This document shows, in pieces, positions 1,519 to 25,084 of a DNA stretch of 26,900 nt (position 1 is the stretch's first letter; each line of letters opens with the position of its first letter). The notes below the pieces were generated by a model, which saw nothing but the letters and a program-made list of their open reading frames with translations, did no database searches and was not told the origin of the DNA. Source of the DNA: Solirubrobacterales bacterium. Lineage in GTDB: Bacteria; Actinomycetota; Thermoleophilia; Solirubrobacterales; 70-9. Both the position numbers and the translations under genes were made by a program. The DNA is taken from the NCBI GenBank assembly GCA_035764795.1, contig DASTYR010000240.1, forward strand, positions 1 to 26,900, read 5' to 3'.

Positions 1519-3063
1519 GTGCCGAGCCGGGCCCGCAACTGGTTGACGCCCGCCGCCTGGGTCGCCGCGGTCTCGGCGGTCCTGCTGGCGATCTTCCCGT
1601 CCGGCTTCCCCAACTACGACACGATCTACAGCCTGCTTTGGGGCCGCGAACTGGCCGATGGGCTGAGCCCCGACCGCGGCGCCGCTCTACCGCCGACCCC
1701 CCACCCCCTCGCCGAACTCTTCGGCCTGGTGACGAGCCCGTTGGGCGACGGAGCAATCGACCTGACCATGGTCGTCGCCTATGTCGCCCTGGGCCTGATC
1801 GGCTACCTCGTCTACCGGCTCGGCTCGCTCTGGTTCGACCGCCCGATCGGCGCCCTCGCGGCGCTGATCCTCCTCACCCGCGCCCCCTACCTCTCCAACG
1901 GCCTGCGCGCCTACATCGACCTCCCCTACATCGCCCTGGTCCTCGCCGCCCTCGTCATAGAGACCAAACGCCCCCGAGCCGGCTGGCCCGTCCTAGCCCT
2001 ACTCGCATTGGCCGGCCTCCTCCGCCCCGAGGCCTGGCTCTTCAGCTTCGCCTACCTCGCCTATCTGGCAATCGATCCTGAGCAGCTCCGCCTCCGTATC
2101 GAGCGCTTCCGCGAGACGAAGCGGCCGGAAGAGGGGATGGGGATACCCCTCGAACGGGCGGATACTCAAAACGCCGGCCTAATTAGGCCGGCGTTTGTCC
2201 GGGCGAGGGGTATCCCCATCCCCTCCCCCCTCGTCCTTCTCGCGTTTTCAGCCCCACTTATGTGGGCCTTGTTCGACTGGATCACGGCTGGCAGCCCCAC
2301 GTATTCCTTTACCGGGACCAGGGAGACCGTCGAGACCCTGGAGCGCCAGACCGGCCCGGTCGACCTCGTCCTCTACGGCCCCCGCCGCCTCGGCGAGGTC
2401 CTGCAGTGGCCAGGCATGGTCGGCGCCGCAGCCGGTGTCGCCCTCGGCCTCGTCTTCCTGCGGCGCCGCAGCACCGTAGGCGTCGTCGCCGCGGCGCTCG
2501 CGCTCGCCGCCTTCGCGATCCTCGCCTGCGCCGGCCTAGCGATCATCCCCCGCTACACGATGCTGGCTGCGGCGATCCTCGCCGTCTTCGCGGCGCTCGC
2601 CCTGCTCGGCTGGCGACTGCTGCCGGGCGGGCACCGCTGGCACCGGCCGTGGCAGGCCGTCGCCGCAGCGGTCGCGGTCCTCTTCGTCCTCTGGGCGCCG
2701 AACCAGTACGACCTGCTGCACCGAGTCGACGTCGACCTGACCAACCAGAGCGAGATCGAGACCGACCTCGACGATCTCGCCTCCTCCGGCGCCTTCGATC
2801 CCCTTTGCCTCCCTGTCTCCGCACCCAACCACCGCGCCGTCCCCCGCCTCGCCTGGGATCTGGACATCCGCCCAAGCCGGATCGTCAGCTCGAGCGAGCA
2901 GCGCCAACCCCGCCGCGGCTACTTCCTCGATCCCTCCGGGCCGTTCGTCGTCCACAACTTCGTCCTCGACCCCAACGACCCGGCCCGGCTCGAGACCCCG
3001 GTGCCGCCCGGCTTTCGCCGCGCCGCGGCGAACGAGTCCTGGGTGCTCTACCGGCGCTGCTGA
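1519..3063 (+). CDS. Multi-pass membrane protein, GT-C fold glycosyltransferase-like
   Basis: Many TM segments, an early NYD motif in the first loop, and 'LAGLLRPEAW' and 'PRY' motifs typical of GT-C-like proteins. Start moved to GTG 1519 on the basis of the -10 position. Confidence 0.7.
   Translation: MPSRARNWLTPAAWVAAVSAVLLAIFPSGFPNYDTIYSLLWGRELADGLSPDRGAALPPTPHPLAELFGLVTSPLGDGAIDLTMVVAYVALGLIGYLVYRLGSLWFDRPIGALAALILLTRAPYLSNGLRAYIDLPYIALVLAALVIETKRPRAGWPVLALLALAGLLRPEAWLFSFAYLAYLAIDPEQLRLRIERFRETKRPEEGMGIPLERADTQNAGLIRPAFVRARGIPIPSPLVLLAFSAPLMWALFDWITAGSPTYSFTGTRETVETLERQTGPVDLVLYGPRRLGEVLQWPGMVGAAAGVALGLVFLRRRSTVGVVAAALALAAFAILACAGLAIIPRYTMLAAAILAVFAALALLGWRLLPGGHRWHRPWQAVAAAVAVLFVLWAPNQYDLLHRVDVDLTNQSEIETDLDDLASSGAFDPLCLPVSAPNHRAVPRLAWDLDIRPSRIVSSSEQRQPRRGYFLDPSGPFVVHNFVLDPNDPARLETPVPPGFRRAAANESWVLYRRC
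2131..2225. repeat. Palindromic intragenic element B, in frame in the membrane protein
   Basis: Perfect 22-bp inverted arms at 2131-2152 and 2204-2225, plus a perfect 28-bp central palindrome at 2169-2196. Confidence 0.92.
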
Positions 3064-3064
3064 G

Positions 3065-3871
3065 CTACTCGACCACGTAGCGGGTCGGCACGAAGGTCTG
3101 CGTGTCCCGCGGCGGCCGCACGTAGGCGCGCTGCTGGCGCGGCGGCAGCTCGATCTTCTCCACCGGCACCGGCTCGTAGGGGATCCGTTCGAGCAGGTGG
3201 CTGATCAGGTTGAGGCGGGCGGTGCGCTTGTCGTCGGCCTCGACGACGAACCAAGGCGAGTCCTTCGTGTCGGTGTAGGAGAACATCTCGTCCTTCGCCT
3301 CGGCGTAGTCGACCCAGTGCGCCCGCGCCTCCAAATCCATCGGGCTCAGCTTCCACTGCTTCGTCGCATCCTTGATCCGGGCCTTGAAGCGGCGCTCCTG
3401 CTCCTCGTCTGAGATCGAGAGCCAGTACTTGACCAGAATCAGGCCCGAGCGCATCAGCATCCGCTCGAAGCTGGGCGCCGAGCGCATGAACTCCTGGACC
3501 TCCTCCTCGGTGGCGAAGCCCATCACCCGCTCGACCCCGGCGCGGTTGTACCAGCTGCGGTCGAAGAGGACCATCTCGCCCGCCGCCGGCAGCTGGGCGA
3601 CGTAGCGCTGGAAGTACCACTGGCTTTTCTCCCGATCGGTCGGCGTCCCAAGGGCGACGGTCCGCACCACGCGCGGGTTCGTCTTCTCCGTGATCCTCTT
3701 GATCACGCCGCCCTTGCCGGCGGTGTCCCGACCCTCGAAGAGGACGGCGACCCGCAGCCCCGCATGGACGATCCATTCCTGCAGCTCGACCAGCTCGTCC
3801 TGCAGCCGCGAAAGCTCCTTCTCGTAGCCCTTCTTCGAGAGAACCTTGGGCGAATCGTCCGCCGTCGCCAT
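3065..3871 (-). CDS. ppk2: Polyphosphate kinase 2 (single domain)
   Basis: Walker A GRDTAGKGG, FDRSWYNR and KWKLSPMD-like lid region. Leaderless TAGGCT -10 lies 6 nt upstream. Confidence 0.95.
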   Translation of the reverse strand: MATADDSPKVLSKKGYEKELSRLQDELVELQEWIVHAGLRVAVLFEGRDTAGKGGVIKRITEKTNPRVVRTVALGTPTDREKSQWYFQRYVAQLPAAGEMVLFDRSWYNRAGVERVMGFATEEEVQEFMRSAPSFERMLMRSGLILVKYWLSISDEEQERRFKARIKDATKQWKLSPMDLEARAHWVDYAEAKDEMFSYTDTKDSPWFVVEADDKRTARLNLISHLLERIPYEPVPVEKIELPPRQQRAYVRPPRDTQTFVPTRYVVE

Positions 3872-3935
3872 CCCGTCAGCCTAGTCGCCGACGCCTGGGG
3901 GCAGGCGAGGCAGGCCGCGTGCAAGCATCAGCCGA

Positions 3936-4826
3936 GTGGCGGCGATAGAGCTACGTGGAGTCGTCAAGCGCTTCGGCCCGATCGTCGCGGTCGACGGGCT
4001 CGACCTGGAGGTGCCGGAGGGCATCTGCCTCGGGCTGCTCGGACCGAACGGGGCGGGCAAGTCGACGACGATGCGCCTGCTGACCGGGCAGGCGTTGTCC
4101 GACGCCGGCGAGCTGCGGGTGCTCGGCCACGAGCTGCCCGTTGAGGCCAAGGCGGCGCGGGCCCAGATGGGCGTCGTTCCCCAGCTCGACAACCTCGACG
4201 TCGACGTCACCGTCGAAGACAACCTCGCGGTCTTTGCTCGCCTCTACCGGGTTCCGGACGTCGGCGCCGCCGTCGATCGGGCGCTCGACCTGTCCCGCCT
4301 GCGCGAGCGACGCCGCGACGCGGTCGACGAGCTCTCCGGCGGCATGCGGCGACGCCTGCTGCTGGCGCGTGGGCTGGTCCACGAGCCGAAGCTGATCCTG
4401 CTAGACGAGCCGACCGTCGGCCTCGACCCGCAGATCCGCACCGAGCTCTGGACGCTGATCGACAACCTGCGCTCGCACGGGACGACGATCCTGATGTCGA
4501 CCCACTACATCGAGGAGGCGGAGCGCCTCGCCGACGAAGTCGCCGTGATGACTAAGGGCAAGATCATCAGCCGCGGTAAGCCGTCAGAGCTGATCACCCA
4601 GCACGCCGGCCGCGAGACCGCGGAGATCTACGCCCCACCCGAACGACTCGCCGAGGCCCGGCTCAAGGCCGAGTCGGCCGGCCTGCGAGTGCGGCCGGCC
4701 GGCCCTGCCATCGCGATCGTCGGCTCCGAGGCCGCTGACGGCGAGGCCGTGCCCGAGGACGCGGTCCGGCGCGCCGCCTCGCTCGAGGACGTGTTCGTGC
4801 TGCTGACCGGCGAGGAGGCGGAATGA
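3936..4826 (+). CDS. ABC exporter ATP-binding protein (NodI/DrrA-like)
   Basis: GPNGAGKS, LSGGMRRR, LLDEPTVGLD and THY motifs. Confidence 0.92.
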   Translation: MAAIELRGVVKRFGPIVAVDGLDLEVPEGICLGLLGPNGAGKSTTMRLLTGQALSDAGELRVLGHELPVEAKAARAQMGVVPQLDNLDVDVTVEDNLAVFARLYRVPDVGAAVDRALDLSRLRERRRDAVDELSGGMRRRLLLARGLVHEPKLILLDEPTVGLDPQIRTELWTLIDNLRSHGTTILMSTHYIEEAERLADEVAVMTKGKIISRGKPSELITQHAGRETAEIYAPPERLAEARLKAESAGLRVRPAGPAIAIVGSEAADGEAVPEDAVRRAASLEDVFVLLTGEEAE

Positions 4827-22275: not shown

Positions 22276-23223
22276 ATGCCCCTGCCCCTTTCGCCGCCGC
22301 TCAAGCCACAGCTGGCGCTGACCCGCAAAGCGCTGCCGCGCGGCGACGAGTGGGCCTACGAGCAGAAGCTCGACGGCTTCCGCGCCATCGTCTTCGTCGA
22401 CGGCAGCGACTCCTACATCCAGTCACGGGGCGGCAAACCGCTCTCGCGCTACTTCCCGGAGCTGAGCTTCAGTCCCGGCCGCTACGTGCTCGACGGCGAG
22501 CTGGTGATCTGCGACAACGAGGGAAACGTGGAGTTCGACGCGCTGCAGAGTCGCCTCCACCCGGCCGAGTCTCGGATCAAGCTCCTGGCCGAGCAGATTC
22601 CCGCCGGGCTGCGCGTCTTCGACCTGCTCGCCGAGGACGACGAGGCGCTGCTGGAGACGCCGTTCGGCGAGCGGCGGGCGCGCTTGGAAGGACTGGCGCC
22701 GAGCCTGGGACTCGAGCTGACCGAGCTGAGCGACGACCCGGAGCGAGCCGAGCAGTGGCTGCGGACGACCGAGGGGGCGATGGCAAAGCAGCTCGACGCC
22801 CCCTACGAGCCGGGCAAGCGACGCGGGATGGCGAAGATCAAGCGCGAGCGGACGATCGACTGCGTCGTGATGGGGTGGCGGCCCGGCAAAGAGGAGGGCA
22901 CCGTCGGTTCGTTGATCCTCGGCCTCTACGACGGCGGCGAGCTGCGATCGGTCGGCCACATCTCCGGCTTCAGGGCCCAGATGAAACGGGACCTGCGCCA
23001 GCTGCTGGCACCGCTGGAGACGGGTGAGCGGGGCAGCGCCGAGCCGAGCCGTTGGGCGGCCGAGCGCGACCTCGAGTGGGTTGCGTTGCGGCCCGAGCTG
23101 GTGATCGAGGTCGGCTATGACCACGCCGCCGCGGGGCGGATCCGGCACGGGGCGCGGTTTCACCGGTTCAGGGACGACAAGGCGCCAGGCGAGTGCCGGT
23201 TCGAGGATTTGGACGAAGGCTAG
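22276..23223 (+). CDS. ligC: ATP-dependent DNA ligase, LigC-like
   Basis: [11 protein letters not shown] (KxDG), VLDGEL, VFDLL, EGAMAK and an OB domain with '[27 protein letters not shown]'. Confidence 0.85.
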
Positions 23224-24330
23224 AAGAGGGTTGACTGAGCGCTCTGGCCAGCGGGTCCTGTCGCCGCAGGGGACCCACCGCCCCTTCCGGTAGCTAAAGC
23301 TTCCTCAGAGGCGGTTCCCCCTACGGCGCCACCCGCTGGAGAGTTGTCTTTCCGGGACAGCTTCGGTCCGGCCGCTCTTCGCCTAGATGCGCCGGAGCGG
23401 CCCCAGCCGCGGACCACTTTCGTCACCTGACCTCTCTCTTGGGCTGGCAAGTACGCTCGACCGCCTGCATAAAGCTGTTCGTAGCGGGGGATCAGGTCGG
23501 GGCGTTTGGCTTCGAGCCAGGCGAAAAAGACGTCGCGGACCTCGTCGCGGAGATGGAGGGCGACGCCGCCTAGGAAGGTTGCACCGGCCTCGCGAGCTCG
23601 GTCGACGAGGGGTTGGACCTGGTCGGGATGGTCGTTGATGCCAGGCATCAGCGGGGCAATCAGGACGCCGGAGTCGATGCCGCGGCGGCGTAGCTCGGCG
23701 ACGGCGTCGAGGCGGGCCGCGGGGCTCGGGGTGTGCGGCTCGGTCTGTCGCCAGACCTTCTCATCGAGGGTCGGGATCGAGAGGTTGACCGAGACGGGAA
23801 GTCGCTTCGCCATCCGCTCGTAGATCTCGATGTCGCGCAAGAGCAGCGGCGACTTGGTGAGGACGGAGACCGGCGTCGCCGCAGCCTCCAGCGCGGCCAG
23901 AATCTCCGGCATCATCCTGTAGCGGTTCTCGACCCACTGGTAGGGGTCGGTATTCGTCCCCAGCGCCACCAGATCCCGCTCCCAGCTCGGTCGCCCCAGC
24001 TCCACCCGCAGCAGCTCCGGCACGTTCACCTTCACCACGATCTCGCGCTCGAAGTCGCGCCCAGCGTTCAGGTCAAGGTAGGTGTGAGTGCGGCGGGCGA
24101 AGCAGTATCGGTAATCGACAGGCGTGGGTGCAACCGCGGAAGGGATTGATCGTCCAGTTGAACCCGTATCGCCCGCCGGGCACCCGATTGAGGGCCGACT
24201 TAGCCCTTATCTCGTGAAACCGGATACCGAGTGCCTCGGGCGCATCGAAAGTTCGGACAATCGCTTCCTCGGCCAGACCGAACAGCCTGCCTTCGCCCTC
24301 CTTGTCCATGCGTTGTTCGTCCCAGCGCAT
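23220..24330 (-). pseudogene. Rv2578c-family (SPL-like) radical SAM gene, frameshifted inside CxxxCxxC
   Basis: MRWDEQ...KSALNRVP...INPFRGCTHAC is in one frame and RYCFARRTHTYLD...ALGTNTDPYQ is in the +1 frame. There are 7 extra nt at 24111-24117. Confidence 0.85.
23251..23336 (+). repeat. 86-bp palindromic intragenic element A, copy 2 (radical SAM C-terminal tail)
   Basis: 80/86 identical to the reverse complement of 207-292. Confidence 0.95.
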
Positions 24331-24331
24331 A

Positions 24332-24345
24332 CGAACACATGTTCG
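24332..24345. promoter_or_regulatory. LexA (SOS) box
   Basis: CGAACACATGTTCG matches the Gram-positive/actinobacterial CGAAC-N4-GTTCG consensus. It lies 1 nt upstream of the radical SAM start codon. Confidence 0.9.
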
Positions 24346-24431
24346 CATAGAATGTATCCGTGGTCAATGCCCCGCCAAAGCCCCTCCTTCAGGTCCAGCG
24401 TCAAGCAGTGGCCTGGAGAAAGGAGGTGCCG

Positions 24432-24488
24432 ATGGCAGAGATTGCATTGATCATGCTCCTGCTCCTGCTGCTCCTTCGGGTGACGTAG
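24432..24488 (+). CDS. 18-aa hydrophobic peptide MAEIALIMLLLLLLLRVT, candidate type I toxin
   Basis: SD AAGGAGGTG, single TM-like core, anti-SD in the leader and a downstream complementary segment. Confidence 0.7.
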   Translation: MAEIALIMLLLLLLLRVT

Positions 24489-24495
24489 GCGGAGC

Positions 24496-24523
24496 GCCGG
24501 CCGGGGCTGCGACCCCGGCCGGC
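24496..24523 (+). other. 11-bp GC hairpin in the peptide 3' UTR
   Basis: GCCGGCCGGGG-CTGCGA-CCCCGGCCGGC. Confidence 0.8.
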
Positions 24524-24539
24524 TACTGACGCCGGACAC

Positions 24540-24569
24540 AGAAAAGGCCCGGCGGCCCGGGCCTTTTCT
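24540..24569. terminator. Bidirectional intrinsic terminator
   Basis: AGAAAAGGCCCGG-CGGC-CCGGGCCTTTTCT, with a T-run after the stem on both strands. Confidence 0.85.
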
Positions 24570-24592
24570 AAGGCAGAAACTGCATTGATCGC
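24540..24592 (-). ncRNA. Candidate antisense antitoxin sRNA (about 52 nt)
   Basis: TATACT -10 at 24598-24603 on the minus strand. Its 5' part (24572-24590) is complementary to 24434-24452, and it ends at the terminator. Confidence 0.6.
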
Positions 24593-24622
24593 CCGGAAGT
24601 ATAACCCGCAGCCTGCTTGCTG

Positions 24623-25084
24623 CTAGGGCAGCTTGCCGGCGATTACGTACCGCAGAACCGCCACCACCTGCTCGGCCGTGCGGGCCGTGGCCTGGGCGGC
24701 GCGGTCGACCTCCTTGAGCGCGTGGTCGAGATCGGTGTCGTGGAGGGTGACGATCGGCTTGCCGAGGGCAGCTGCGAAACCGGCGTCAAAGGCGGCGTTC
24801 CACTGGCGGTACTTGTCGCCGAAGCGGACGACGACGACGTCGGCGTCGCGGATCAGCGTCTGGGTGCGGACGGCGTTGACGCCGGCGCCCATGTGGTCGC
24901 GCCAGAACGGGCTCTCCTCGGGGCCGAGAGTCCCCACGCCGGCGTCGTCGGACGCGCCGTGGTCGGTGACCGGCGCCGTGAACTCAACCGGCAGACCGGC
25001 CTCGCGCACCCCCGCCTCGATCCGCTCGCGCCAGTCGGAATGGATCTCACCCGCCAGGTAGATGCGCCAGGTCCGCTCGCTCAT
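24623..25084 (-). CDS. ytoQ: YtoQ family protein (nucleoside deoxyribosyltransferase-like fold)
   Basis: IYLAGEIHSDWRE, DHGASDD, VVRFGDKYRQWNAAFDAG and HALKEVD motifs. Confidence 0.92.
   Translation of the reverse strand: MSERTWRIYLAGEIHSDWRERIEAGVREAGLPVEFTAPVTDHGASDDAGVGTLGPEESPFWRDHMGAGVNAVRTQTLIRDADVVVVRFGDKYRQWNAAFDAGFAAALGKPIVTLHDTDLDHALKEVDRAAQATARTAEQVVAVLRYVIAGKLP

Follow-up and report, generated by a model that had tools for sequence, protein, structure and literature searches.

The window analysed here, a stretch of 26,900 nucleotides, holds at about 24346–24606 a small intergenic cassette that an earlier note had read, from the letters of the sequence, as a DNA-damage-induced type I toxin-antitoxin module: a LexA box, a promoter, a very short hydrophobic open reading frame (ORF) and a convergent antisense segment. 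This reading raises three questions, namely whether these elements form a genuine unit that selection has kept together, whether the LexA box governs that unit, and whether its peptide is a toxin. When the sequence was re-read, every element that had been named was found at the coordinates given below. Comparison with relatives leads us to favour, on balance, the view that the cassette belongs to a new, chromosomal family of type I toxin-antitoxin-like elements, combining a layout of the par/Fst or SprA1 type with a peptide of Ibs size and probable SOS control.

Layout of the locus

The cassette occupies a gap flanked by two genes on the minus strand. On one side lies a divergent radical-SAM gene (23220–24330, ATG at 24330) that is Rv2578c-like, a likeness that holds at the level of the Pfam family; on the other lies a ytoQ-like gene (24623–25084, Pfam PF11071, E = 3.6e-63), with dcd behind it. 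Because both neighbours are on the minus strand, no plus-strand gene follows the small ORF. Between two divergent promoters stands a putative LexA (SOS) operator, CGAACACATGTTCG (24332–24345), which is a perfect CGAAC-N4-GTTCG palindrome. Two nucleotides past this box, on the plus strand, is a predicted -10 element, TAGAAT (24348–24353), which would serve a peptide mRNA of ~210 nt (24360–24569), the candidate toxin message; we infer its ends from the start site and the terminator.

The leader of this predicted mRNA, ~72 nt between the -10 element and the Shine-Dalgarno (SD) sequence, contains two segments that could fold back on the coding region. Its 5′-terminal element, GUGGUCAAU (24360–24368), is predicted to pair with codons 5–8 of the ORF (24446–24454), and an anti-SD sequence, CCUCCUU (24383–24389), pairs with the SD in the single-sequence fold. 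The SD itself (AAGGAGGUG / AAGGAGGTG, 24420–24428) has a GGAGG core that ends 5 nt ahead of the ATG at 24432, the first of 18 codons encoding MAEIALIMLLLLLLLRVT; the ORF with its stop codon, TAG at 24486–24488, spans 24432–24488. Directly 3′ of the stop codon there is a GC-rich hairpin with an 11-bp stem and no U-tail (24496–24523, plus strand), and beyond it a bidirectional intrinsic terminator (24540–24569) composed of a symmetric A-run, a 13–14 bp stem and a T-run, which would be common to the mRNA and to a small RNA (sRNA) arriving from the other side.

Downstream of the terminator, positions 24570–24590 repeat the opening 21 nt of the ORF. On the minus strand this copy forms the seed of a predicted antisense sRNA of ~53 nt, the antitoxin candidate, which would run over 24539–24592 and begin with an open 5′ seed and end in the terminator hairpin. 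The seed is complementary to the mRNA from the AUG to codon 7 (24432–24452), and a predicted -10 element for the sRNA, TATACT (24598–24603, minus strand), lies 7 nt upstream of it. Judging from this geometry, a transcript of the ytoQ-like gene would also continue across the sRNA sequence as far as the shared terminator.

A generic sigma-70 promoter scan found no full promoter, and no -35 element is visible for the plus-strand promoter. Since such a negative outcome is expected in high-GC actinobacteria, conserved TAnnnT hexamers were used as promoter evidence instead. An Rfam scan of 24100–24800, assessed by E-value, gave chance-level matches only, all of them far below the gathering scores; the best of them, rsmX, scored 22 bits against a gathering score of 56 and was rejected.

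The radical-SAM gene is split in the window. A 7-nt near-duplication at 24105–24117 (GTATCG-GTAATCG, plus strand) interrupts it within the CxxxCxxC motif, leaving two ORFs (24073–24348 and 23220–24038), and removal of 7 nt restores C-R-Y-C-F-A-R. The split could be a recent inactivation or an assembly error; the short contigs of relatives taken from DNA sequencing runs do not extend over it.

Distribution of the family and predicted pairing of its RNAs

The cassette was found in 12 of 162 same-genus genomes, a count that includes one frameshifted copy and one deletion remnant, with one copy per genome. A degenerate SD-plus-peptide pattern, scanned against one genome for each of 185,579 species, matched nine genomes, all of them Solirubrobacterales MAGs, and the same pattern matched 12 soil metagenome contigs. 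The information in this pattern is, by our own count, ~53 bits, and the cassette as a whole is far beyond what chance would produce. Searches of viral contigs with the peptide pattern and of plasmids by blastn gave no match. A covariance model of the leader and ORF (R1) returned nothing credible from 150 genomes of the order; its single match (L060, 28 bits) fell within a coding region and was rejected as a homologue. These comparisons indicate that the family is real, chromosomal and restricted to one genus-level lineage of Thermoleophilia.

Within that lineage the gap between the ytoQ-like and radical-SAM genes is variable. Across the loci compared (L004–L015, L024, L025, L027 and L073) it is empty (38–50 nt), or holds a SnoaL-like gene (PF12680), the cassette, or both; at L009 and L024 there is an additional short ORF region. 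A DNA search of 40 relatives recovered the box and the start of the radical-SAM gene in 19 of the 24 same-genus genomes, and the rest of the gap in only two of these. In a tree of the flanking proteins, which is built on a short alignment and has several weak nodes, cassette carriers are interspersed with non-carriers, a distribution that points to repeated loss or exchange. The V5/…REM peptide type (L025, L026) likewise occurs in distant clades of this short, in places weakly resolved tree, which hints at within-genus exchange of cassettes by recombination. Sequencing-run contigs of relatives contained the family's usual variants: 24464 C>T, which is synonymous, and 24471 C>A, which changes L to I.

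Two copies are damaged. In G014 (L024/L002) a 4-nt deletion just past the start codon causes a frameshift and is accompanied by a 6-nt in-frame deletion, with the leader, terminator and antisense segment intact; either the copy is decaying or the indels are long-read errors. In G069 (L031, 1450–1650) everything between the direct repeats is gone and one hybrid repeat is left, such that the SD and the first seven codons run into the region past the second repeat, and the rest of the ORF and both hairpins are lost. This remnant looks like the outcome expected of recombination between the two direct repeats. By analogy, the patchiness and decay suggest a dispensable, decaying, lineage-restricted element, as chromosomal type I systems typically are (PMC5367252).

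The predicted mRNA is strongly folded (minimum free energy -113 kcal/mol, z = -5.0 against shuffles), and a consensus fold of 19 homologues contains 53 pairs, nine of them with double-sided changes. Four elements persist in this fold: the stem between the 5′ end and the ORF, an overlapping stem in the leader that extends as far as the 5′ edge of the SD, the hairpin past the ORF, and the terminator. Five compensatory pairs fall in the post-ORF GC hairpin across the 19 homologues and two in the bidirectional terminator of the consensus fold, while the anti-SD/SD stem is conserved with one-sided changes and one compensatory pair. The seven pairs of the 5′-to-ORF stem are kept in 19 sequences, with A-to-G changes that yield G-U pairs; no double-sided change occurs in this stem, which fits the model but has no support from covariation. 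The mRNA is thereby predicted to lock its own ribosome-binding site. Its 5′-terminal element lies in the same sense as the sRNA seed, and the motif GAUCAAU is common to the 5′ ends of both RNAs, so that the two would compete for the same site in the ORF.

All intact homologues conserve the predicted sRNA, whose fold (-29 kcal/mol, z = -4.4 against shuffles) leaves its first 9 nt open. Every homologue carries TATACT, TATAAT, TATGAT or TATCCT, always fitting TAnnnT, 7 nt upstream of the seed on the minus strand. Seed and target form 19 contiguous pairs in the window, where the best site for the seed besides its own template is the start region of the ORF (-33.7 kcal/mol, against -18.8 +/- 2.6 for shuffled seeds). 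Counted over 19 distinct mRNA/sRNA pairs, Watson-Crick positions number 336, against 33 G-U positions and 30 mismatches; columns 12, 14 and 16 of the seed are fully compensatory and columns 12–21 are never broken, although the homologues are related to one another and such counts therefore overstate the number of independent events. Pairing is better between cognate than between non-cognate partners (mean duplex energy -28.8 against -22.1 kcal/mol; permutation p < 1e-4).

Gene conversion between the direct repeats may be part of the source of this co-variation. The repeat copies differ at 63 places, and 33 of these differences keep a G-U pair in the duplex of mRNA (plus strand) and sRNA (minus strand), against six of the mirror types; this directional wobble bias matches the prediction of selection for the mRNA/sRNA duplex. 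The earlier note had counted a lack of conservation of the ORF and antisense pair in relatives among the things that would overturn its reading. The relatives show the opposite: they retain the ORF with its SD, the two hairpins, and the antisense segment together with its promoter, and the start of the ORF and the antisense segment co-vary. As a prediction, the cassette therefore has the locally encoded RNA complementary to the toxin mRNA that defines a type I system, recognisable by a conserved -10 element, seed and terminator and by the co-variation of seed and target.

The LexA box and probable SOS control

The box at 24332–24345 is the only LexA box of the window. Shuffled windows contained a mean of 1.56 boxes at the one-mismatch setting used, and genome-wide counts of the perfect motif were not above those of a reversed-pattern control. 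By count, a single perfect box is not beyond chance, and the argument for this one has to rest on its position and conservation. It is invariant in all 15 same-genus loci compared, where the adjoining sequence diverges, and it matches the M. tuberculosis LexA consensus, TCGAAC-N4-GTTCGA (PMC3381160). G100, a complete genome of the same genus, has this motif ~38 nt ahead of a gene encoding LexA_DNA_bind and Peptidase_S24 domains, which identifies the box as the SOS operator type of the lineage. The locus thus displays what marks a member of the LexA regulon, a conserved CGAAC-N4-GTTCG in the promoter and the same motif at lexA.

The box nevertheless has an older attachment. It stands 1 nt from the radical-SAM ATG and adjoins that ATG in every genome, including cassette-free ones with a gap of 38–50 nt; since it serves the radical-SAM gene in those genomes, it must be older than the cassette. 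The radical-SAM gene and its box are conserved across the genus whether or not the cassette is present, and in M. tuberculosis the Rv2578c/Rv2579 region is a LexA ChIP peak (PMC3381160).

It could consequently be argued that the peptide/antisense pair is real and not under SOS control, the box serving the radical-SAM gene only and the cassette having landed beside it. We consider this unlikely. In its favour, the box is invariant at the empty sites of cassette-free genomes, the fixed spacing from box to -10 element could be explained by a single ancestral insertion, and of the 20 loci whose upstream flank is complete, three have an intact cassette and no box. These three are the G061/L069 lineage and L073. 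In G061 the cassette sits between an alcohol dehydrogenase gene and serA, and in L073 it lies beside an IS1595-family transposase gene (2936–3982), with the ytoQ/SnoaL side kept and the radical-SAM/LexA side lost.

What tells against the insertion argument is the arrangement of the promoter. The junction between box and -10 element is kept in the other 17 of the 20 loci, and in the plus-strand promoter the box would span about -28 to -15, a position at which LexA, bound as a dimer, should keep RNA polymerase out however the arrangement arose. The -10 hexamer reads TA(G/C)(A/T/C)AT in all box-bearing cassette loci, and the hexamer at the same position in cassette-free genomes is not -10-like; that a -10 element stands beside the box only where the cassette is present counts in favour of the SOS-controlled type I cassette.

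Taken at the level of sequence, SOS control is probable for the locus at 24332–24603 and is not a defining feature of the cassette family. The earlier claim of a LexA box at the head of the cassette holds in so far as the box is of the lineage's SOS operator type, as its occurrence at lexA in G100 indicates; it has to be narrowed in that the box belongs by ancestry to the radical-SAM gene and is missing from those three loci.

The shared operator region also bears on the radical-SAM neighbour. Read on the minus strand, the 5′ element of the cassette at 24362–24367 is TTGACC (TTGATC in relatives) and lies 17 nt upstream of a GAACAT within the LexA box. These hexamers are a possible -35/-10 pair for a leaderless radical-SAM mRNA, in which case the cassette may supply part of its neighbour's promoter. 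Elsewhere in the window's own genome (L016, contig C111) and in G100 (L065), a second perfect LexA box, TACGAACATATGTTCGTATG (box at 1501), adjoins the ATG of a plus-strand ORF, which suggests that this genus habitually places the operator on the start codon of leaderless SOS genes.

The peptide, related systems and a proposed mechanism

The peptide is 18 aa long in every one of 21 distinct DNA versions, which encode 18 distinct peptides following the pattern M-x-E-x-[AV]-L-I-M-L-L-[LF]-L-L-[IL]-L-R-[VEM]-[TMA]. Across the genus set, codons 6–16 vary synonymously only (TTG/CTG, CTC/CTT, CTG/TTG/CTA, CGG/AGA), with the exception of L/I at codon 14; one metagenome variant has an L-to-F change at codon 11. 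Compared pairwise, the versions give a pN/pS of 0.29 over the whole ORF and 0.17 over codons 8–18, the stretch that is free of RNA-pairing constraint. Intact copies never vary in start codon, stop codon or SD, and the AGGAGG core is likewise the same among intact homologues, although the contigs retrieved with the pattern contain that core by construction. The fixed length, the low pN/pS and the invariant start, stop and SD together argue for purifying selection on the peptide, and the ORF accordingly has the properties of the toxin gene of a type I system, a small (<60 aa) hydrophobic peptide gene under selection. Its hydrophobic core comprises 12 residues bounded by E3 and R16; both of these are conserved, as is the I-M pair. 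A core of 12 residues is short for a membrane span, and this counts against reading the peptide as a toxin.

The same features would suit a small membrane regulator, for example an SOS-induced division inhibitor, with the sRNA setting its threshold. Like the product predicted here, SidA of Caulobacter and YneA/SosA of Firmicutes are small membrane peptides made from LexA-controlled promoters, and membrane-bound SOS-induced division inhibitors of this kind are common (PMC6051672, PMC4211646, PMC6851548). The conserved E3, R16 and I-M pair could then reflect a specific partner rather than bulk membrane damage. We regard such a role as quite unlikely, however. SidA and YneA/SosA are core genes for which no antisense RNA or self-locking mRNA has been described, whereas the cassette is patchy, with decaying or deleted copies among its 12 occurrences in 162 genomes, which is not what a core checkpoint gene would show. 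A self-locking mRNA combined with an antisense RNA is the hallmark of type I toxins, and we know of no division inhibitor that is controlled in this way.

Two further readings were rejected on conservation, geometry and selection on the peptide, as was a chance ORF. That the Leu-rich ORF is the leader peptide of a transcription attenuator, or that the plus-strand RNA is non-coding, is brought to mind by a run of seven to eight Leu/Ile codons with two hairpins after it; it is very improbable given that no plus-strand gene lies downstream, that the spacer between the hairpins varies from about 0 to 40 nt with no alternative pairing conserved, that Leu codon usage is mixed, and that the non-Leu residues, length and stop codon are conserved (pN/pS 0.17). 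A RiPP precursor modified by the adjoining radical-SAM enzyme is scarcely credible despite the proximity of the two genes, for the radical-SAM gene is genus-wide irrespective of the cassette, G061 and L073 have the cassette and not that gene, a Cys/Ser/Thr-rich core is missing from the peptide, and in the window's genome the radical-SAM gene is frameshifted beside an intact cassette.

The type I cassette that we prefer shares features with several known systems. The toxins of par (Fst/RNA II, Enterococcus faecalis pAD1) and SprA1/SprA1as (Staphylococcus aureus) are about 30–33 aa long and have Firmicute hosts, whereas the window peptide has 18 aa, an actinobacterial host and a putative LexA operator at its promoter. 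The organisation is nevertheless the same: as here, their RNAs are convergent and overlap at their 3′ ends at the shared terminator only, and the inhibitory pairing takes place outside the overlap, at the initiation region, by way of repeats (summarised in the T1TAdb preprint). The cassette thus has the Fst/RNAII layout of convergent RNAs, a bidirectional terminator and direct-repeat pairing at the initiation region; homology to the Fst/RNAII family was not found, with no Rfam antitoxin match and no similarity evident.

In its proposed regulatory logic the cassette is like tisB/istR-1 and dinQ/agrB of Escherichia coli, which are LexA-controlled small hydrophobic toxin genes encoding peptides of 27–29 aa. 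Their long primary mRNA is translationally inert, and the small RNA pairs near the ribosome-loading region. TisB is an SOS-induced toxin (PMC2887945), and the sRNAs of both systems are encoded upstream and divergently (T1TAdb preprint), whereas the candidate antitoxin here is downstream and convergent. No homology to TisB/IstR-1 or DinQ/AgrB was detected, either as sequence similarity or as an Rfam match in 24100–24800.

In size and make-up the peptide resembles those of the ibs/sib loci of E. coli, which are 18–19 aa long and almost wholly hydrophobic. Ibs genes are missed by ORF callers (PMC2887945), and the window peptide would be too. The Sib RNAs are cis-antisense over the whole ORF (T1TAdb preprint), whereas the predicted sRNA uses a separate copy of the ORF's first 21 nt, and ibs/sib loci are multicopy, whereas the cassette is single-copy. 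Having no homology to known type I systems, the cassette would represent a new family within a known class. Type I families have been described almost only from Proteobacteria and Firmicutes and are phylum-restricted in surveys (PMC5367252; T1TAdb preprint). The earlier note knew of none in this lineage, and our literature search likewise found no type I system described in Actinobacteria/Actinomycetota, although absence from the literature is no proof of absence.

As candidates, the SOS-linked small peptide and antisense module of the earlier note and the type I cassette proposed here draw support from the conserved ORF, the antisense pair, the co-variation and the SOS operator type. The cassette would work as follows. 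The plus-strand promoter, with its -10 element 2 nt past the LexA operator, would drive the ~210 nt mRNA for the 18-residue hydrophobic peptide, and in the undamaged cell LexA would presumably sit on the shared operator and repress it. Any mRNA that is made would be born translationally silent, with its 5′ end on codons 5–8 and the anti-SD on the ribosome-binding site. The convergent RNA of ~53 nt would arise from its own -10 element and also, through read-through, in the 3′ tail of the neighbouring minus-strand operon. It would overlap the mRNA only at the bidirectional terminator, and its 21-nt 5′ seed would pair with the mRNA from the start codon through codon 7, which would keep ribosomes from entering and probably set off decay. 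After DNA damage, cleavage of LexA would allow the mRNA to outnumber the sRNA and the peptide to be made; with E3 and R16 flanking its core, the peptide would then insert in the membrane and arrest growth. In tisB and dinQ a processed form of the mRNA is needed for translation, and a processed, unlocked form may be required here as well.

A more far-reaching version of this proposal can be put forward tentatively, and taken whole we think it improbable. It would make the cassette an SOS-wired type I family of Actinomycetota with an 18-residue toxin, whose antitoxin is in part the 3′ tail of a nucleotide-metabolism operon (dcd-ytoQ) and whose left end (GATCAA, on the other strand TTGACC or TTGATC) provides the -35 element of the divergent repair gene under LexA control. 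A repair enzyme and a growth-arrest peptide would then be coupled through a single operator with two face-to-face promoters.

The practical value of the cassette is limited by its hosts, which are uncultured soil bacteria. It does show that such cassettes can be picked out in raw sequence and validated by co-variation alone, and this family would add a second example of an 18-residue toxin candidate, placing it beside Ibs among the shortest. A comparatively well-supported family in Thermoleophilia would extend the type I class to a new phylum, and it would show an independent origin of the par-type layout together with SOS wiring.
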